Shown here: piece after piece, positions 1 to 6,386 of the stretch | Layout: every line of letters starts with the position of its first letter | Position numbering within the stretch: position 1 is the stretch's first letter | IMG/VR virus record: IMGVR_UViG_2529293138_000005 | Span: 1-6,386 of that record | Direction: 5' to 3' (one strand) | DNA length: 6,386 nucleotides | DNA from: a virus | Lineage: Duplodnaviria > Heunggongvirae > Uroviricota > Caudoviricetes | The notes under the pieces: model-generated | What the model was told of the DNA's origin: nothing | The model's input: the letters and a program-made list of their open reading frames with translations, nothing else | Databases searched by the model: none | Made by a program: the position numbers and the translations under genes

Positions 1-288
1 ATGAAACTTAAATATTCTGGCTTAACTGCCAGCGGCACCGCTCGGCCTGAAATCCGTAACGGCGATATTTACCGCGATAAATATGGCGGCATGGTAACGA
101 TTAAAGGCGTGGCAGAACGGCGCATCACCTACCGCCGTGAAGGTTACGAATATGATTGCGTGATGCCTGTTTATCAATTCCGGCGTGATTTCACGCTGGT
201 AGGCCAGCGTAAAGCCGTTAATCAGAAACGTGCAACAGGTTATATCCGCAAAATCCGTGAAATGCTGGTCGCAGGGGGTAAGAAATGA
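1..288 (+). CDS. Hypothetical small basic protein (95 aa); begins at the window edge, so may be 5'-truncated
   Basis: Uninterrupted ORF in the same orientation as the downstream operon. Its stop TGA (286-288) overlaps the next ATG (285-287) as ATGA, suggesting translational coupling. No recognisable family motif. Confidence 0.45.
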   Translation: MKLKYSGLTASGTARPEIRNGDIYRDKYGGMVTIKGVAERRITYRREGYEYDCVMPVYQFRRDFTLVGQRKAVNQKRATGYIRKIREMLVAGGKK

Positions 289-452
289 AACTGGCACCGA
301 ACGTAAAACGATTACCGAAAGATAAATACACCGATGCGATTATTTTTGCGGGTATTGATGCTCACTCATTCGCAGAGCATTACATCATTGCACAGGCCAA
401 AAAAGCAGGCGATCCAGTCCCTCCCGTTTATCTGGGGGCGTTAATCAGTTAA
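285..452 (+). CDS. Hypothetical small protein (55 aa), absent from the supplied ORF track
   Basis: ATG at 285 preceded by a strong Shine-Dalgarno-like GGGGGT at about 273-278. Hand translation gives MKLAPNVKRLPKDKYTDAIIFAGIDAHSFAEHYIIAQAKKAGDPVPPVYLGALIS with TAA at 450-452. Start overlaps the upstream stop. Confidence 0.4.
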   Translation: MKLAPNVKRLPKDKYTDAIIFAGIDAHSFAEHYIIAQAKKAGDPVPPVYLGALIS

Positions 453-502
453 GCGAACTGGATAACCTCCAGATTGTTGATGATGGGCGATACAGGGCGA
501 CG

Positions 503-1684
503 GTGATACGCGCCGGAAATATTGAAGAGCCGCAGCTGTTAACCATCGCCACGAAACTGGCGATCGCCGGAGTCCAGGAGGCGCGGCTACTTTCTGAAAA
601 TTTCGAATTGCTGGAGGAATGGAGCGACCAGCTTCCACGGCTTAGGGAGACATGGGAACGCGGGGAAAGCCTGAGCAACCAGCGAAAAACCACGCTACCA
701 ATGAGCGTGGGATCTGCCGGATACGACACACAACTTGATTACGTGGTTAAGGGAATTATTCCGGCTGTATCGCTTTGCAGCATATACGGGGCGAGCGGTT
801 CCTATAAATCATTCCTTGCCGGATCGTGGGCGTGTCACGTTTCCACTGGCCGCCAGTGGGGATGCCGCAGGGTGGCGCATGGCGCTGTTCTCTATGTGGT
901 TGGTGAAGGCGGTATCGGCGTTCCTCGTCGTGTAAAAGCCTGGGAGGTTGTGCACGGTGAGCAGGTGAAAAATCTGTATCTGGTAAACCGTCCCATCTTT
1001 CCGGCTGCCCCGCTTGATGTTGATGAAATGGTTATCGCTGCCCGTCAGGTGGAACGGGAAACGGGTAAACCTGTACGCATGATTATTCTGGATACGCTGG
1101 CGCGGTGCTTTGGTGGCAATGATGAAAATGATTCCCGTGATATGGGGGCGTTTATCCGTGGGTGTGACGAACTGAAACGACGCACAGGGGCCACGGTGCT
1201 GGTGGTTCACCATTCCGGCAAGGATGAAACAAAGGGAGCGCGTGGTTCCAGTGCATTTCGTGCTTCGCTGGATGCTGAATACCGGATACGCAGGGAGGAC
1301 GCAGGAAGCGAAGCCCTGGTTATCTCATGCACCAAAATGAAGGATGCGGAGGAACTCAAAGAAGCCGCATATGACTTACGCGTGGTGGAGCTTTTTACCG
1401 ACGCTGACGGGGAGTTAATCACGTCGCTGGTGGTGGTGGATAAGCCGCGCCCTCCCGTTGAACTGGAGCGCATCGAGGAGGCTGGCAACAAGACGGAAAA
1501 CCATACCGCGCTATGGGGATGCATACGTTCACGCACACAGAACGGCGACAAGTGCACGATCCCGCTGTTACGTGATGACATGAAAAAACTGGGGTACGAA
1601 ATGAAAAACTTCCGGCGCTGGCTGTACAAGCTGGAAAAAGACAGGGTTATTCGTATCGATGGGGATGATGTAGCGCCGCTATAA
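503..1684 (+). CDS. Replication protein, RepA-like RecA-family ATPase (AAA_25-type helicase/initiator) with a C-terminal extension
   Basis: Motifs read directly from the translation: P-loop-like GASGSYKS, Walker-B-like MIILDTLARCFGG, and HHSGKDETKGARGSSAFRASLDAEY, typical of RepA/AAA_25 proteins. GTG start at 503; an in-frame ATG at 701 is an alternative start. Followed immediately by an iteron-like block. Confidence 0.75.
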   Translation: MIRAGNIEEPQLLTIATKLAIAGVQEARLLSENFELLEEWSDQLPRLRETWERGESLSNQRKTTLPMSVGSAGYDTQLDYVVKGIIPAVSLCSIYGASGSYKSFLAGSWACHVSTGRQWGCRRVAHGAVLYVVGEGGIGVPRRVKAWEVVHGEQVKNLYLVNRPIFPAAPLDVDEMVIAARQVERETGKPVRMIILDTLARCFGGNDENDSRDMGAFIRGCDELKRRTGATVLVVHHSGKDETKGARGSSAFRASLDAEYRIRREDAGSEALVISCTKMKDAEELKEAAYDLRVVELFTDADGELITSLVVVDKPRPPVELERIEEAGNKTENHTALWGCIRSRTQNGDKCTIPLLRDDMKKLGYEMKNFRRWLYKLEKDRVIRIDGDDVAPL

Positions 1685-1860
1685 AGTGAGGTGCAAAAGC
1701 GAGGTGTATAGAAGGAGGGCCAAAATTAGACCGCTACCCCTCACTTTTCGGCCTGTATACATCCTCAAAAGTGAGGGGCAAAAAAATACTTATGAAACAC
1801 ACACATAGAAAAAGCGAAAATCTCAAGCGAGACGGAGCCAGACACTTTAAAAAGTGAGGC
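1682..1860. repeat. Iteron-like repeat block (four copies of an AAAGTGAGG-type motif, one inverted); candidate origin or operator region
   Basis: Motif copies at 1683-1693, 1737-1751 (inverted), 1767-1778 and 1850-1860. Copies 1737-1748 (CCCCTCACTTTT) and 1767-1778 (AAAAGTGAGGGG) form a perfect 12-bp inverted repeat around an 18-nt spacer containing GTATAC. Region is AT-rich and sits directly after the rep stop. Confidence 0.5.
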
Positions 1861-1883
1861 GAAAAACTGAGAGTTTGCGAGAA

Positions 1884-2135
1884 ATGAACAAAATGCGTAG
1901 AGACAGAACAGAGCCAAAATATAAAGCGTTAGACATGACAGAGCACGCTTTAAAGGTGGCAATCAGAACGATAGACCGCCACGCGGGGGAAGGATACGCG
2001 AAGGAACATCCCGACATGATAAGCGCATTCATGACCACAGCAGCGGCAAACTTTGCCACGCTGACAGAACGGGAGATTGCCGAAGCGGAACAGGTAACAA
2101 CCATCAACGTTAAAACCGGAGAGCAGACAGCATGA
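1884..2135 (+). CDS. Hypothetical protein (about 83 aa), translationally coupled to the ssb-like gene
   Basis: ATG at 1884 with GAGAG about 10 nt upstream. The track's GTG start at 1854 lies inside an iteron copy and is less likely. Stop TGA 2133-2135 overlaps the ssb ATG at 2132 (ATGA). Confidence 0.5.
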   Translation: MNKMRRDRTEPKYKALDMTEHALKVAIRTIDRHAGEGYAKEHPDMISAFMTTAAANFATLTEREIAEAEQVTTINVKTGEQTA

Positions 2136-2555
2136 CAGCACAGATAGCGGCTTACGGACGGCTGGTGGCTGACCCGCAGTTAAAGACCACCAGCAAGGGT
2201 ACACAGATGACGATGGCGAGTATGGCGGTCCCCCTTCCGTGCAGCCAGGCAGATGACGGAGCGGCGACGATGTGGTTATCCGTCATGGCGTTTGGCAGAC
2301 AGGCCGACGCACTGGCAAAACAACCACAAAGGCGAACTGGTGAGCGTGGCGGGTAACATGCAGGTAAGTCAGTGGACAGGCCAGAACGGCGAAACGCGGC
2401 AGGGCTGGCAGGTTATCGCAGACAGCGTAATCAGTGCGAGAACGGCGCGACCTGGCGGCAAAAAAGGCCAGCAGGGGCAGGCTACTGATGCACTGAACAG
2501 GGCAAAACAACAGGCGGGTAACGATGATCCGTACGGGGATAACATACCGTTTTAA
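2132..2555 (+). pseudogene. ssb: Single-stranded DNA-binding protein (SSB) gene split by a +1 frameshift near 2317-2324
   Basis: The N-terminal part (frame of 2132) reads AYGRLVADPQLKTTSKGTQMTMASMAV...WLSVMAFGRQADALAK, an SSB OB-fold pattern. The C-terminal part (frame of 2253) reads HKGELVSVAGNMQVSQWTGQNGETRQGWQVIADSVI and ends in the acidic tail DDPYGDNIPF (compare E. coli SSB ...DDDIPF). The two halves are in different frames; removing one A from the AAAA run at 2317-2320 restores a continuous reading ...ALANNHKGELV.... Confidence 0.65.
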
Positions 2556-2571
2556 GCAACGAGTAACAGAA

Positions 2572-2593
2572 GCCGGAGAAGTCCGGCTTTTTT
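2572..2593 (+). terminator. Rho-independent terminator closing the rep-ssb operon
   Basis: Stem GCCGGA, loop GAAG, stem TCCGGC, then TTTTTT; located 17 nt after the ssb stop. Confidence 0.7.
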
Positions 2594-2600
2594 ATGCCCC

Positions 2601-2628
2601 AAAAAAAGCCCGGAGGGTCTTATCGGGC
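2601..2628 (-). terminator. Possible minus-strand terminator; with the previous hairpin forms a bidirectional pair
   Basis: On the minus strand: stem AGCCCG, 11-nt loop, stem CGGGCT, then TTTTTTT (complement of the A-run 2601-2607). No convincing minus-strand gene upstream of it in the window. Confidence 0.3.
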
Positions 2629-2710
2629 TTTTGCATATGAGGTTTTTTTGGTGCGCTGACACACATGATCGGGATAATAATTTCATAATTTGCAACATAA
2701 CTCAATATTA

Positions 2711-2738
2711 TTGCACAAAATGCAATCCTGATTATAAT
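2711..2738 (+). promoter_or_regulatory. Near-consensus sigma70-type promoter with an overlapping dyad, upstream of the head operon
   Basis: -35 TTGCAC (2711-2716), 16-nt spacer, -10 TATAAT (2733-2738). The -35 lies inside the dyad TTGCA-N5-TGCAA (2711-2725), and the -10 lies inside the perfect palindrome GATTATAATC (2730-2739). Confidence 0.45.
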
Positions 2739-2796
2739 CATGACTGGATGAACAATCCAGTTATGATTTTTAAGTTCGAAGAGGAATTTCTTACTA

Positions 2797-3002
2797 TGGC
2801 TGAAGAGAAAAAAGGCGGTGTTTCGGTGTACATAAGCTCCGACATCGTGGAGGCGCTCAAGGAACGCCACCAGCAGAACGTAAAAGCAGGCATTGCGGCA
2901 GGACTTGATCCACTGGCGATGGTTGAGCCGTCAACAGGCTGGCAGGTGCGCGCCTATTTACGTGCGGCGCTGGGCATGAATCAGACTCATGGGGGTGAAT
3001 AA
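2797..3002 (+). CDS. Hypothetical small protein (68 aa) at the head of the capsid operon; possibly a ribbon-helix-helix-like or scaffold-like protein
   Basis: ATG at 2797 with AAGAGGAA upstream. Stop TAA (3000-3002) shares a base with the capsid ATG (3002-3004). The longer track ORF starting at 2631 would overlap the promoter region and is rejected. Confidence 0.5.
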
Positions 3003-4057
3003 TGGCAGGCAAAGCAACGGCACTTACCACTAATCAGCTTTTCACGTACATGAATCGCGGGGATATTGCGGAATTTAAATTCAGTCCGCTGTTTACCACG
3101 CTGTTTTTCACGAACGTGGCGACATTCAGCACCCAAAACATCATGCTGGATACCCTGGACATTGAAGAAGTCACTATGTCGGCGTTTTGTTCTCCTATGG
3201 TTGGCAGCCAGGTACAGCGCGATAAAGGGTACGAAACCAGCACAATCAAACCTGGCTACATGAAGCCAAAGCACGAAATCGATCCAACAAAGACCATCAT
3301 GCGCATGGCTGGAGAAGATCCGGCACAGCTTAACGACCCTACCTACCGCCGTATGCGCCTGATTACTGGCAACATGCGCCGCCAGATAAACGCCATTAAA
3401 GCGCGCGTGGAATGGCTGGCGGTGAATGCGATAACGACCGGAAAAAACATCATTGAGGGCGAAGGCATAGAACGCTATGAAATCGACTGGAAGATACCGG
3501 GAAAAAACATCATAGAGCAGGCCAAAGGCCGTAAATGGTCCGAGCAGGACAAAGAAACCCACGATCCAATCTATGATATCGAGCTTTATGCGGATCAAGC
3601 AGATTGCCCCGCCAACGTCATGATTATGGGCGCAGAGGTATGGCGCACGTTACGCAGCTTTAAAAAATTCCGTGAACTGTACGATCTTTCCCGTGGTTCA
3701 GAATCCGCCGCAGAACTGGCCTGTAAAAACCTGGGCGAAGTGGTGAGCTTTAAAGGCTATCTGGGCGATATTGCCCTTATCGTCTATTCCGGCAAATATA
3801 CTGACAGCGACGGCACCGAAAAATATTTCCTTGAGCCTGATTTGCTGGTCCTTGGCAACACCAACAATAAAGGGCTGGTGGCCTATGGTGCGATTATGGA
3901 TCAGGAAGCGGTAAGAACGGGCGCAACGCAAAACATGTACTACCCGAAAAACTGGATTGAGGACGGCGATCCGGCGATTGAGTACGTGCAGACACACAGC
4001 GCACCGCAGCCGGTTCCGGCAGATATTCGCAAATTTGTTACCGTCAAAATTGGTTAA
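3002..4057 (+). CDS. Major capsid protein, lambda gpE family (351 aa)
   Basis: Collinear similarity to lambda gpE as recalled: FKFSPLF versus KFKFDPLF, TIKPGYMKPKHEIDP versus FTPGYVKPKHEVNP, DPTYRRMRLI versus DPAYRRRRII, FKGYLGDIALIVYSG versus YKGMYGDVAIVVYSG, LVLGNT versus MVLGNT, YPKNWIEDGDPA versus YPKNWVTTGDPA. Strong SD (GGGGGTGA) before the ATG. Confidence 0.9.
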   Translation: MAGKATALTTNQLFTYMNRGDIAEFKFSPLFTTLFFTNVATFSTQNIMLDTLDIEEVTMSAFCSPMVGSQVQRDKGYETSTIKPGYMKPKHEIDPTKTIMRMAGEDPAQLNDPTYRRMRLITGNMRRQINAIKARVEWLAVNAITTGKNIIEGEGIERYEIDWKIPGKNIIEQAKGRKWSEQDKETHDPIYDIELYADQADCPANVMIMGAEVWRTLRSFKKFRELYDLSRGSESAAELACKNLGEVVSFKGYLGDIALIVYSGKYTDSDGTEKYFLEPDLLVLGNTNNKGLVAYGAIMDQEAVRTGATQNMYYPKNWIEDGDPAIEYVQTHSAPQPVPADIRKFVTVKIG

Positions 4058-4068
4058 CGGGGGATTCT

Positions 4069-4404
4069 ATGGACACTCCATACATTGAGTTATTTGCAGG
4101 CAGTCAGCAGGTATCCACGACACTGGTACATTTTGCCGCTGATGCTGGCGTTATTCAGGAATTTACCCCGCTGATGCTGGCGGACAATGGCGAGTTTAAG
4201 CCGTGGGATGGTCAGGAATCTGGCAAGGCTGTTTATCTGACTTCGTACCCAGTGGACACGTCAACGCAGAAATCAGCACAGTGTTACAAGACGGGGATAT
4301 TCAATATTGCCGCCGTTAACTGGCCTGAGAGCGTCGACACCGACGTGAAAAAATGCGCCGCCTTTGCGGGTTCTGGCGTATCCGTTCAGCCGCTGGCGCG
4401 ATAA
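4069..4404 (+). CDS. Head decoration protein, lambda gpD family (111 aa)
   Basis: Similarity to lambda gpD as recalled: TPLMLADNGEFKPWDG versus TPLMLDTSSRKLVAWDG, and YKTGIFNIAAVNWPESVDTDVKKCAAFAGSGVSV versus [44 protein letters not shown] upstream. Gene order E then D is the reverse of lambda (D then E). Confidence 0.85.
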   Translation: MDTPYIELFAGSQQVSTTLVHFAADAGVIQEFTPLMLADNGEFKPWDGQESGKAVYLTSYPVDTSTQKSAQCYKTGIFNIAAVNWPESVDTDVKKCAAFAGSGVSVQPLAR

Positions 4405-4478
4405 GCAGGGGGAACGATGGCAGAAACCCAGGCGATGACGGCGACATCGATCGCATACTGAAAACCATCTGAGACAAG

Positions 4479-4500
4479 GCCGGAGAAATCCGGCTTTTTT
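4479..4500 (+). terminator. Rho-independent terminator after the decoration gene, immediately upstream of cosQ
   Basis: Stem GCCGGA, loop GAAA, stem TCCGGC, then TTTTTT. Differs from the terminator at 2572-2593 by a single loop base. Confidence 0.7.
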
Positions 4501-4572
4501 GCGGGTCCTTTCCGGCGATCCGACAGGTTACGGGGCGGCGACCTCGCGCGTTTTCGCTATTTATGAGCCTTT
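4501..4572 (+). other. Lambda-type cos site 1 (cosQ-cosN), rightward orientation; cosN GGGCGGCGACCT at 4533-4544
   Basis: GCGGGTCCTTTCCGGCGATCCGACAGGTTACG, then GGGCGGCGACCT, then CGCGCGTTTTCGCTATTTATGAG. This is near-identical to the lambda right-end/left-end junction as recalled (...ACGGGTCCTTTCCGGTGATCCGACAGGTTACG | GGGCGGCGACCTCGCGGGTTTTCGCTATTTATGAAAA...). Confidence 0.8.
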
Positions 4573-4574
4573 TC

Positions 4575-4651
4575 AGGTTGGTGGTGGTGGTTTTGTTGTT
4601 CGCTGTATCTCTATGAATAAAAAGGGAAAGATAACCACAAAACACCAACCT
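4575..4651 (+). repeat. cosB-like region of cos 1: inverted repeats around an A-rich spacer, unlike lambda R sites
   Basis: AGGTTGGTGGTGGTGGTTTTGTTGTT (4575-4600) and AACCACAAAACACCAACCT (4633-4651). The 9-bp cores AGGTTGGTG (4575-4583) and CACCAACCT (4643-4651) are exact reverse complements. Lies between cosN and the terS start, where lambda carries its Nu1-binding sites. Confidence 0.4.
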
Positions 4652-4692
4652 GAAGCATTAACTAAGTGTGGGTATTGATGAAATCGCACCTG

Positions 4693-5220
4693 ATGAATAA
4701 AAAAACCATGGCGCAAAGCTGCCGTGTAAGTGCTACAGCGTTCGACAAGTGGGGAGTGACTCCCGTTGAACGTAAAGGCCGTGAGGCGTTTTATGATGTT
4801 GCCAGCGTGATAGACAATAGGGTTAACAATGCAATTAACCAGGTTACAAACGACAAAGGCGATATTGATGATGATGAACTTTTACGCGTAAGAATCAGAT
4901 TACTGACAGCACAGGCGGAGGCGCAGGAGCTTAAAAACGAGCGCGAACGCGGCGACGTGATTGATACAGGTTTTTGCCTGTACGCGCTTTCAAAGCTGGC
5001 GAGCCAGATTTCTTCAATCATGGACAGTTTGCCGCTTACCATGCAAAGGCGCTTCCCGCAGATTACTCCCGCTATGCTGGATGGGCTTAAAAGGGAAGTG
5101 GTTAAAGCCTGTAATGCCAGTGCCACAGTTGCCGACAACCTACCGAAGATACTGGCTGATTACCTGATGGAAACTACCGGAGACGTACCGGAGAAGTTGC
5201 TACAGAAGAAAGTCGAGTAA
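4693..5220 (+). CDS. Terminase small subunit, lambda Nu1-like
   Basis: C-terminal half collinear with lambda Nu1 as recalled: LTAQAEAQELKNERE versus LTRAQADAQELKNARD, GFCLYALSKLASQISSIMDSLPLTMQRRFPQ versus AFCTFVLSRIAGEIASILDGLPLSVQRRFPE. The N-terminal putative DNA-binding region (MNKKTMAQSCRVSATAFDKWGV) is divergent. Start ambiguous: GTG 4666, ATG 4678, ATG 4693 or ATG 4708; 4693 chosen because it aligns with the Nu1 N-terminus. No large terminase ORF follows. Confidence 0.85.
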   Translation: MNKKTMAQSCRVSATAFDKWGVTPVERKGREAFYDVASVIDNRVNNAINQVTNDKGDIDDDELLRVRIRLLTAQAEAQELKNERERGDVIDTGFCLYALSKLASQISSIMDSLPLTMQRRFPQITPAMLDGLKREVVKACNASATVADNLPKILADYLMETTGDVPEKLLQKKVE

Positions 5221-5246
5221 CAGACGCGCAATTATTGAACAAAACT

Positions 5247-5450
5247 GAGAAACGACATGAAAGCGTCATAAATCGCCATTTTAGATGATTACCGTGTCGT
5301 TTCTTTTTATTGTGTATCTATTTAAAAACAAATAGTTATGTTCGAGAATTACCGACATGCTTTTTCCAGAAAAATTTTCATAAACAGATAAAAACCGCGA
5401 GGTCGCCGCCCCGTAACGGGCCATAATTCCAGGAAGGACCCGACGACACC
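5247..5450 (-). other. Lambda-type cos site 2 in inverted orientation (cosN AGGTCGCCGCCC at 5400-5411, i.e. GGGCGGCGACCT on the minus strand), with lambda-like R-site inverted repeats
   Basis: Reverse complement of 5343-5411 reads GGGCGGCGACCTCGCGGTTTTTATCTGTTTATGAAAATTTTTCTGG..., resembling the lambda left end (GGGCGGCGACCTCGCGGGTTTTCGCTATTTATGAAAATTTTCCGG). GAAACGACA (5249-5257) and TGTCGTTTC (5295-5303) are exact inverted 9-mers resembling lambda R-site cores as recalled. The cosQ-like side (5412-5450) is only partly lambda-like. Confidence 0.7.
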
Positions 5451-5475
5451 AGACAATCAGAACATCGGGAACACA

Positions 5476-5760
5476 ATGACAGAAGCCGAACTACTGAAAG
5501 TAATCTGCCGTATTACCGGAATCAGCCAGACAGCAGGCAAACAGGAGGCCACGCAGCCGGACAGCGTGATAGCCGAAAATTACGCGCGTGTGGTGGCTGA
5601 GGTGATGCGCCGTGATGGTATTGAGCTTAACGGCGTGGATATGCGCGACATACGGATCAGAGTTCTGGAGTTGTTGTCATATCGTCGCCGCGTGGAGATG
5701 TATCGGGAGAGCGAGAAAAAGACTTACCAGTGGAAGAAACCGGAGCGGCTGCGTACGTAA
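5476..5760 (+). CDS. Hypothetical protein (94 aa) immediately beyond cos 2
   Basis: ATG at 5476 with GGGAA about 8 nt upstream. No recognisable motif. Arg/Glu-rich C-terminus. Confidence 0.4.
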   Translation: MTEAELLKVICRITGISQTAGKQEATQPDSVIAENYARVVAEVMRRDGIELNGVDMRDIRIRVLELLSYRRRVEMYRESEKKTYQWKKPERLRT

Positions 5761-5933
5761 TGCGTACGGACATCGAGACAAAGACGAACAGTATTCTGGT
5801 TCAGTGCAAAACAACGTTAAACGTGGTTTTGCGTCCAGAGTCATCGTAATGGTTTTATGCGTCCTGCGTTGCGCTGGTGGATTTGAGGGATATAGCTGGT
5901 AGTGGTAAATCCCTTTTGCGTGGCGGTGCGATG

Positions 5934-6021
5934 GCTGCATGGTGGAAATCACCACGAAGGGGAGGTGATAAACACTCCCCCTTTTCGTGTGGTGCATGGT
6001 CAAAATGACCACGGAGGGGAG
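5934..6021. repeat. Two copies of an approximately 30-nt direct repeat (period 57 bp) with embedded hairpins, in a non-coding region
   Basis: GCTGCATGGTGGAAATCACCACGAAGGGGAG (5934-5964) versus GGTGCATGGTCAAAATGACCACGGAGGGGAG (5991-6021). Embedded palindrome TGGTCA-AAA-TGACCA (5997-6011). Imperfect hairpin CACGAAGGGGAG...CTCCCCCTTTTCGTG (about 5953-5989). Hairpin GACTATC-TCAAA-GATAGTC (6026-6044). Confidence 0.4.
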
Positions 6022-6271
6022 AACCGACTATCTCAAAGATAGTCACCCCATACCAGGATCACGCTAATAACGCACAACAGAGTGACCCATAGCCACCCTG
6101 TTCAACCGTTCCGGCTGACTGGACAGCATCATCACCATGATGGTGACGCAGCCCACCAGCAACCATAACGATTTCCTTTACAGCTGATGTGCTTTTTTGC
6201 TGATAAGGCGTAACCAGTTGATTGTTCCAGAATCACCCATTGGGGGAGGCTGGGCGGCCTGCTGTGGGCTT

Positions 6272-6288
6272 TTCCACCATTGGTGGAA
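6272..6288. repeat. Perfect 17-bp palindrome TTCCACCA-T-TGGTGGAA
   Basis: Read directly from the sequence; 8-bp arms around a single central base, typical geometry for a dimeric DNA-binding protein site or a tight hairpin. Confidence 0.3.
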
Positions 6289-6386
6289 AGGTGCACATCT
6301 GGATCATCATTACGGTGATCAATGGTATGTAAAACCCACCAGCCTGATTGACATTTAACCGGAAAAAAGCCAGGTAGCCCCGTCAT

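Follow-up and report, generated by a model that had tools for sequence, protein, structure and literature searches.

Among phage-inducible chromosomal islands (PICIs) found in Gram-negative bacteria, the model element is EcCICFT073, which lies between ycfD (roxA) and phoQ with the attachment (att) core GGACATATTT (Table S1, PMC6092414), and for which alone helper-dependent induction, excision, replication, high-frequency transfer and interference have been shown (PMC6092414, PMC6739421). It is packaged through the Rpp mechanism, for which cos1 is required (PMC6739421). Features described for Gram-negative PICIs include two cos sites and genes for capsid and decoration proteins (PMC6092414); enterobacterial PICIs typically have a capsid gene (PMC10085698), as do 21 of 29 reference Gram-negative PICIs (PMC10111431), and the PICI model of SatelliteFinder has five core components, namely integrase, regulator, pri-rep, capsid-like and terS genes (PMC10085698). 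For two further islands of the 2018 catalogue, EcCIIHE3034 and EcCI18098, a gene for a terminase small subunit (TerS) is reported (PMC6092414, PMC6739421). Here we analyse a 6,386-nt stretch of DNA (IMG/VR record IMGVR_UViG_2529293138_000005, positions 1 to 6,386), referred to as the window, which is very probably the right-hand 6.4 kb, comprising the replication and late/packaging modules, of a 10.6-kb EcCI-family Gram-negative PICI inserted at roxA-phoQ. As judged from its gene content and order, its layout is that of a canonical enterobacterial PICI, and the element is of an already known kind.

Genes were called from a listing of open reading frames (ORFs) combined with Pfam and PHROG scans, and the features expected of a Gram-negative PICI were taken from PMC6092414 and PMC10085698. 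Related loci are the 80 IMG/VR loci that share the major capsid protein (MCP) gene, and near-identical copies were located by look-up with the 94-aa protein (hyp94) encoded by the last gene of the island.

Chromosomal site and extent of the island

Positions 40-6425 of contig AFDZ01000011.1 (NCBI draft assembly GCA_000225205.2) match the window at 100% identity, and just 39 bp separate it from the contig start. The genes 3' of it on that contig, phoQ-phoP-purB-hflD-mnmA-nudJ-rluE-icd, are in E. coli synteny, and comparison of the empty roxA|phoQ junction of K-12 with occupied sites shows the chromosome resuming at window-equivalent position 6606. Because chromosomal sequence restarts only there, the entire window lies inside the insertion. 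Judged by these flanks, the host chromosome is of E. coli type and the island sits between roxA (ycfD) and phoQ. The right-hand attachment site is located as follows.

6606-6615 (window-equivalent, about 220 bp past the right end of the window): attR core GGACATATTT, 10 bp

On the source contig this core equals that published for EcCICFT073. Five contigs of other assemblies match the window at 99.1-99.7% identity across all 6386 nt and carry the left half of the element, consisting of attL, a 409-aa tyrosine integrase adjoining roxA, an AlpA-family regulator, a Phage_ASH-domain gene and small genes. Their order runs roxA, int, AlpA, then, after intervening genes, DUF4222, RepA, single-stranded DNA-binding protein (SSB), MCP, decoration protein (Dec), TerS, hyp94 and phoQ. 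The AlpA gene (PF05930 Phage_AlpA, 62 aa) follows int in L095-L099, and a helix-turn-helix regulator occupies the equivalent place in L001, L002, L006 and L010-L012. Direct repeats of GGACATATTT are 10,631 bp apart in L095, giving an island of 10.6 kb. The flanking features by which the original prediction proposed to recognise a satellite, namely an integrase, an AlpA-like regulator and att direct repeats, are thus all found in the 99.1-99.7%-identical copies, and what they delimit is a small integrative island, not a prophage.

Two side observations concern the ends and their surroundings. Some 75 nt of sequence close to attR (L003 about 6498-6572, window-equivalent 6459-6533 and therefore outside the window; L001 7464-7538) recur just inside attL, upstream of int, in direct orientation and with about 80% identity; these repeats near both att ends may be arm-type binding regions of the integrase. 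In addition, L095, L098 and L099 (19309-20285) carry a phage-type integrase (Arm-DNA-bind_1) directly 3' of icd, the site of the EcCICFT073 helper prophage, and the same site is empty in L096, L097 and L100, which indicates that the island persists whether that candidate helper is close by or not.

Gene order and the cos-terS-cos region compared with described islands

The window holds ten genes, all on the + strand (one of them a remnant of a 137-aa gene), and its minus strand contains no convincing gene. Its replication, capsid and packaging features are listed below.

1-288, +: DUF4222 gene, 95 aa (PF13973, E 3e-25; phrog_285), first gene of the replication module
285-1684, +: RepA-family helicase / replication initiator, 465 aa if intact (AAA_25, E 2e-42)
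1683-1875, no strand: replication origin, two iteron groups around an A+T-rich stretch
1884-2135, +: 83-aa gene, function unassigned (phrog_1231, E 1e-51), overlapping ssb downstream
2132-2555, +: ssb, 140 aa if intact (Pfam SSB matches on both halves)
2570-2635, +: two tandem intrinsic terminators, closing the replication module
2796-3002, +: 68-aa gene (phrog_3255, E 1e-37), its stop overlapping the capsid gene start
3002-4057, +: MCP homologue of the lambda gpE family, 351 aa (PF03864 Phage_cap_E, E 4e-51; phrog_29, E 2e-106)
4069-4404, +: head decoration protein homologue of the lambda gpD family, 111 aa (PF02924, E 9e-18; phrog_49)
4405-4500, +: remnant of the 137-aa gene (deletion within 4405-4475), start and last 13 codons left
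4476-4500, +: intrinsic terminator after the D-type gene (hairpin and T-run, by folding)
4502-4566, +: cos1 (cosQ and cosN), core GGGCGGCGACCT at 4533-4544
4567-4677, +: cosB1, predicted private terminase-binding region
4678-5220, +: Nu1-family TerS, full length, 180 aa (PF07471, E 4e-23; phrog_57, E 3e-51, residues 1-173)
5247-5313, +: terminator after terS (hairpin and T-run), on the cosB side of cos2
5371-5442, -: cos2 (cosQ-cosN), inverted relative to cos1, core GGGCGGCGACCT at 5400-5411
5476-5760, +: 94-aa gene (hyp94), last of the island (phrog_1561, E 1e-50)

The individual features named in the original prediction (the DUF4222 gene, RepA-type helicase, iterons, ssb, E- and D-type genes, and a cos-terS-cos arrangement) are real according to Pfam and PHROG matches and repeat counts, as are the placement of all genes on one strand and the hairpin terminators between modules, which folding supports. 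Its modular architecture holds, with the amendments that rep and ssb are split in this copy, that cos2 is inverted, and that the window is only part of the element.

Aligned with EcCICFT073, the window compares segment by segment as follows.

DUF4222 (1-361): 75%
rep gene and origin (362-1931): no homology; a 584-aa primase in CFT073
83-aa gene and ssb: 81%
68-aa gene, MCP and Dec: 94% (DNA)
cos1 (cosQ-cosN): 90%
terS region (4575-5364): no homology; rppA in CFT073
cos2 and 94-aa gene: 83% (the hyp94 proteins are 72% identical)
attR-proximal arm: 96%

The two islands therefore share, besides the site and core, a one-way order of DUF4222, rep, origin, hypothetical gene, ssb, 68-aa gene, MCP, Dec, cos1, packaging gene, inverted cos2 and 94-aa gene. 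They differ in that EcCICFT073 has a primase where the window has a RepA/AAA_25 helicase, and a 144-aa RppA where the window has a 180-aa TerS together with a different cosB; perC and the 137-aa gene, present in EcCICFT073, are absent from the window. EcCIIHE3034 has the late module of the window, with a TerS that is 93% identical followed by a hyp94-type gene, and differs in its integrase and att site (cspD-clpS), its primase-type rep gene and its retention of the 137-aa gene. An island of strain Nissle 1917 at tRNA-Pro/yejM is colinear with the window and of the same terS type. The O157:H7 island at roxA-phoQ shares the window's site, its combination of RepA with TerS, and its MCP and Dec, with a terS region about 90% identical and an overall identity of about 88-90%; unlike the window, it has perC and the 137-aa gene. 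It is probably the element known as CP-933C or O-island 51, long called a cryptic prophage (PMC3378721), and a link of OI-51 to EcCICFT073 has been published. Cos-type Staphylococcus aureus pathogenicity islands (SaPIs) such as SaPIbov5 are alike in carrying a helper cos site and a capsid homologue and in being packaged by cos helpers (PMC6092414, PMC5052747), and differ in sequence and host and in having no TerS of their own; in SaPIbov5, Ccm redirects capsid size, while no role has been detected for the capsid homologue of EcCICFT073.

The complete element thus combines an integrase with att repeats, AlpA, one-way rightward genes, a length (10.6 kb) within the 10-15 kb size class and no tail or lysis genes with a replicon of the expected kind (a RepA AAA_25 helicase and five iterons) and with two lambda-type cos sites, a Nu1-family TerS, and MCP and Dec homologues. 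The claim that this layout matches no canonical PICI does not stand, as gene for gene it corresponds to published Gram-negative PICIs (EcCICFT073, EcCIIHE3034) and to the components of SatelliteFinder. By contrast, the proposal of a phage satellite with a lambdoid helper, in the sense of one with lambda-type cos, is borne out by the PICI gene set and the cos sites. Since the island has lambda-type cosQ-cosN yet no large terminase (TerL), portal, protease, tail or lysis genes, it must rely on a lambdoid cos phage for its virion.

The element is conserved as a unit. All 80 related loci are colinear, with their genes on one strand, and none holds TerL; the single portal match among them, at 60% identity, is in the 54-kb contig L065. 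Loci holding both int and hyp94 (n=34) have a median length of 11.0 kb, and the layout occurs at three or more chromosomal sites with a different integrase at each. Among the 61 loci that reach hyp94, the packaging type is TerS in 34, which makes it the commonest in this sample, RppA in 18 and neither in 9. Integrases of three types occur across the 80 loci, in many combinations with several replication types and three packaging types, and, on this comparison, the int, rep and packaging modules recombine freely within the family. At least 80% of the window is present, at about 88-90% identity, in 341 of 5426 complete E. coli genomes, and the terS-cosB module in 785. Scans of species-representative genomes, first with the MCP and then with an MCP alignment, gave no confirmed relative.

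Within the replication module, the end of the DUF4222 gene overlaps the rep start (ATGA), and DUF4222 likewise precedes the rep gene in the EcCICFT073, IHE3034, Nissle and O157 islands. An intact RepA homologue matches phrog_2850 end to end. The iteron AAAGTGAGGNG occurs in five copies, four direct and one inverted, all within 1683-1861 and against 0.41 expected. In the relatives L001 and L002 the repeat positions are kept while the sequence is AAAGTGGGG, co-varying with the Rep variant; fixed positions with a changing repeat sequence are the pattern expected of iterons that co-evolve with their initiator. The origin also agrees with those of Gram-negative PICIs in PMC6092414, which lie 3' of rep and consist of iterons, an AT-rich stretch and iterons. 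The 83-aa gene is found in most of the 80 related loci, and the intact SSB of L004 matches phrog_44 (E 2e-39).

The window's cos1 is nearly base for base that of the lambda cosQ-cosN and of EcCICFT073 cos1, and the flanks of cos2 are also lambda-like; together the two sites form a 72-nt inverted repeat around terS, 75% complementary. On its cosB side, which faces terS, cos2 resembles a phage R3 region and that of CFT073 prophage 4. The equivalent of cos2 in EcCICFT073 is functional yet dispensable (PMC6092414, PMC6739421). At cos1, the motif GGTGGTGGTGG stands in cosB1 at the position equivalent to R3 of lambda and N15 (PMC9026076), bp 48-65 from the cos end (4580-4597), and folding shows a long imperfect inverted repeat, CAGGTTGGTG...CACCAACCTG (TTCAGGTTGGTGGTGGTGGTTTTG ... 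AACCACAAAACACCAACCTGAA), at 4571-4655 around an A+T-rich spacer, which recalls the R3-IHF-R2 arrangement of lambda cosB. Homology to EcCICFT073 ends at 4574, and that of terS-type with rppA-type islands stops exactly where cosN meets cosB. Over the 61 loci, the median identity of cosB1 to that of the window is 87% for the terS type, 47% for the rppA type and 56% for the third type, whereas cosQ-cosN matches the window at about 90% identity in all three. Divergence of cosB1 by packaging type, with cosQ-cosN constant, argues that cosB travels with its packaging protein. As a separate observation, rppA-type cosB carries the complementary tract CACCACCACCAC at an equal distance from cosN.

No Rpp-type packaging gene was found at cos1, and there is no DNA homology to rppA across 4575-5364. 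Rpp proteins have 144-153 aa and a DNA-binding domain but lack a C-terminus that binds TerL. RppA (144 aa) has no significant similarity to the window TerS and detectably matches only the N-terminal 36 residues of TerS from the helper phage. Over 179 aa, the window TerS shares 33% identity with its counterpart in the EcCICFT073 helper prophage, and its best match in the phage collection is N15 gp1 (47% identity). It aligns end to end with the TerS proteins of lambda, 21 and N15, including the C-terminal region, which in lambda binds the large terminase (PMC9026076). Like N15 gp1 and lambda Nu1, which belong to the same family and are of the same length, it is encoded just downstream of cosQ-cosN-cosB, and it shares with N15 gp1 the lack of the same 11-residue stretch after the DNA-binding domain. 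It differs from the N15 and lambda proteins in having no adjacent large-terminase gene, an unrelated cosB sequence and an extra 12-residue C-terminal tail.

Two ORFs called in the source record, one of 59 aa over cosB1 and one of 47 aa on the minus strand over cos2, overlap conserved cos DNA and were rejected as spurious.

Alternative explanations and a possible packaging route

The analysed copy is not intact as it stands. By alignment to the 99.2%-identical L004, rep reads as 285-452 and 503-1684 owing to 1-bp insertions at 434 and 443, and ssb as 2132-2356 and 2253-2555 owing to a 1-bp insertion at 2322. Each of these insertions lengthens a homopolymer run in a draft assembly, and they may equally be sequencing errors or real mutations. 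An unbroken rep gene (465 aa) occurs in L095-L097, L099 and L100, and every other copy of the window's variant has an intact 465-aa RepA and 140-aa SSB. A 349-bp deletion, with a 9-bp overlap at its junction, also removes most of the 137-aa gene between Dec and cos1 (window 2571-4422 aligns with L006 13231-15089, and window 4414-4574 with L006 15439-15600). This gene is kept in EcCICFT073 and most relatives and is also missing in the near-identical copies and in L002, L049, L053 and L070; because it is shared with near-identical copies and a few other terS-type islands, the deletion is a real variant.

These lesions bear on two of the other explanations that we considered. The original prediction had allowed equally for a decayed lambdoid prophage, one in which deletions would have left nothing but E, D, Nu1 and cos. 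Such an origin would account for the lambda-type families of the capsid, decoration and TerS proteins, for cosQ-cosN being nearly that of lambda, and for the frameshifts and the 349-bp deletion, and it would fit the label of cryptic prophage long attached to CP-933C / O-island 51 in O157:H7 (PMC3378721). We nevertheless find it most improbable. The best phage matches reach only 46% (MCP) and 47% (TerS) identity; the order is E-D-cos-terS, whereas lambda has Nu1 and A at its left end and D before E; and the flanks are roxA and phoQ. Moreover, a unit of about 11 kb that includes int-alpA and a replicon of its own is found again and again, at three or more att sites, TerL is missing from 80 of 80 loci, at least 80% of the window is held by 341 complete E. 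coli genomes, and relatives are experimentally helper-dependent satellites (PMC6092414). A second explanation accepts a PICI of known kind but takes this copy to be dead, immobilised by the rep and ssb frameshifts and the deletion. The two insertions in rep and one in ssb, set against copies that are 99.2-99.7% identical, and the loss of the 137-aa gene speak for it. The lengthening of homopolymers in a draft assembly is, however, a typical signature of sequencing error, the remaining copies of the variant are all intact, the absence of the 137-aa gene from 99%-identical and other terS-type islands implies that it is dispensable for persistence, and loss of pri-rep in EcCICFT073 reduces transfer without abolishing it (PMC6092414). 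A dead copy is thus unlikely, though it deserves more weight than any of the other alternatives.

The remaining alternatives concern classification. Placement in an undescribed satellite family or variant, apart from P4-like satellites, PICIs, capsid-forming PICIs (cf-PICIs) and PICI-like elements (PLEs), as the original prediction had suggested, is favoured by the full-length TerS in place of the characterised Rpp, by the RepA helicase in place of the EcCICFT073 primase, and by a literature search that gave no experimental paper on the cos mechanism of the terS type. Yet E. coli PICIs that encode TerS in the same gene order were catalogued in 2018 (PMC6092414), terS and a capsid-like gene are PICI core components of SatelliteFinder (PMC10085698), rep and packaging modules are exchanged as cassettes within one family, and EcCICFT073 has an identical att site and core, which leaves a new family very unlikely. 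Kinship with P4-like satellites extends to the integrase, AlpA, an own replicon and helper dependence; no sid/psu/delta-type gene, alpha-type primase or P2-type cos is found among the Pfam and PHROG matches of the window or the gene calls of complete copies, the cos of the island being lambda-type and not the P2-type of P4-like satellites, and P4 is itself kept separate from E. coli PICIs in PMC6092414. The cf-PICIs (e.g. EcCIEDL933) share those same traits and also an MCP and TerS, and the presence of MCP, decoration protein and TerS genes might suggest an island that makes small heads itself and takes only tails from a helper. This has almost no chance of being correct, as the large terminase, portal, prohead protease/scaffold and head-tail adaptor/connector genes that define cf-PICIs (PMC10085698) are absent from the window, the complete copies and the related loci, and the island is only 10.6 kb.

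For the preferred reading, that of an EcCI-family PICI packaged by a helper, the following route can be proposed. On helper induction, AlpA would turn the island on and Int would excise it, and RepA with the iterons would replicate it. The full-length Nu1-type TerS of the island would bind the private cosB beside cos1, and its C-terminal region would recruit the large terminase of the helper, which would cut the shared cosN; helper-made heads would then be filled with island concatemers and not with helper DNA. The island TerS would in this way replace the heterocomplex of Rpp and helper TerS of EcCICFT073, and cos2, inverted and with a phage-like cosB, would be a secondary site usable by the helper's own terminase. 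Whereas Rpp converts the helper TerS, the proposed takeover bypasses it. We give about an even chance that terS-type EcCI islands use a cos takeover new for PICIs, in which an own TerS acts on a private cosB, helper TerL is recruited and helper TerS is bypassed.

Several points weigh against this account. With rep and ssb frameshifted and the 137-aa gene lost, the copy in the window could be non-functional. None of the available phages transferred the IHE3034 or the 18098 island at high frequency (PMC6092414), so that no helper is on record for the terS type. A sequence search of solved structures with TerS returned neither lambda Nu1 nor RppC, giving only chance matches (E > 0.05). Finally, we infer the binding of TerS to cosB1 and to helper TerL only from homology and co-segregation.

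As the family was described in 2018, is routinely detected by SatelliteFinder and is present in hundreds of E. coli genomes, the window has little discovery value. Its practical value lies in correct annotation, because pipelines and older papers label this kind of region "cryptic prophage", a mistake that its terS and capsid genes encourage. For satellite specialists, the questions of interest are how terS-type cos-PICIs select their own DNA and which phages help them.

Capsid genes, late control region and right arm

The capsid pair presents a further point of interest. MCP is 95-97% identical among islands with different integrase, replication and packaging modules, and its best matches in the phage collection (46% identity) are in Gifsy-1, 21 and lambda-like phages. 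In EcCICFT073, deletion of the capsid and decoration genes left both transfer and interference unaffected (PMC6092414). That the MCP/Dec pair is kept at 95-97% across reshuffled islands, despite deletion without phenotype in the one model tested, deserves the attention of specialists. In L098 (7181-7977, 9161-9745), an island that likewise occupies roxA-phoQ, there are ProQ-domain and PerC genes along with a Nu1-type gene of 194 aa, and no capsid or decoration gene is called, which indicates that the pair is not universal even among terS-type islands. The 68-aa gene that precedes MCP is annotated at the matching place in all compared islands.

Upstream of these genes lies a conserved non-coding segment with the following elements.

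2676-2795, +: conserved control region of the late (capsid/packaging) operon, putative function
2710-2726, within the control region: palindrome ATTGCAcaaaaTGCAAT
2733-2738, within the control region: perfect TATAAT
2736-2773: 14-bp hairpin and T-run, overlapping the -10 element, found by the consensus terminator scan

The region is near-invariant in the EcCICFT073, IHE3034, O157 and 05-3629 islands and likewise in the related loci. It may act as an operator, or else as a leader terminator under antitermination control. Variants of the hairpin stem in related loci are partly compensatory (TAA/TTA, GGA/TCC, CAA/TTG), but the commonest one has a G-A mismatch. Searched by blastn against 50,697 phage records and CFT073 prophage 4, the region matched nothing except the island itself, a result that neither supports nor excludes borrowing from a phage late promoter (Q/qut-type). 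LexA-box-like patterns are not enriched and none lies near the late operon, leaving control by an SOS box, as in the packaging operons of SaPIs, unsupported.

The terminators elsewhere in the window were judged by direct RNA folding, without use of the consensus scan, as the latter gave sites no more numerous than in shuffles and missed terminators that are evident on folding. The fold of 2565-2640 (-30.7 kcal/mol) contains two hairpins with a T-run after each, and that of 5225-5320, spanning the terminator after terS, has -25.8 kcal/mol. An Rfam scan gave nothing near any gathering score, its weak matches corresponding to terminator hairpins and the cosB inverted repeat.

The third packaging type, whose cos sites enclose neither terS nor rppA, is seen in L015, L016, L071, L073, L078, L079, L082-L084 and L087, among others. 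Its cos1-cos2 spacing is about 524 bp (terS type, 867 bp; rppA type, 739-760 bp), and its cosB differs too.

Beyond hyp94, the window ends in a single long segment.

5761-6386, no strand: non-coding right arm, with a variable part (5754-6203) and a conserved attR-proximal part (6204-6386)

An 84-aa ORF on the minus strand (6132-6386) and small right-arm ORFs were rejected for their implausible composition and for the lack of any annotated gene in relatives, and 5754-6203 yielded no credible ORF or Rfam family. This variable part is absent in EcCICFT073 and in the L001, L002 and L011 islands, and has partial matches only, in 159 complete E. coli genomes. Two copies of a 29-nt direct repeat lie in it, at 5936-5964 and at 5993-6021, along with several strong hairpins, one of which is GGGGAG...CTCCCC followed by TTTT.

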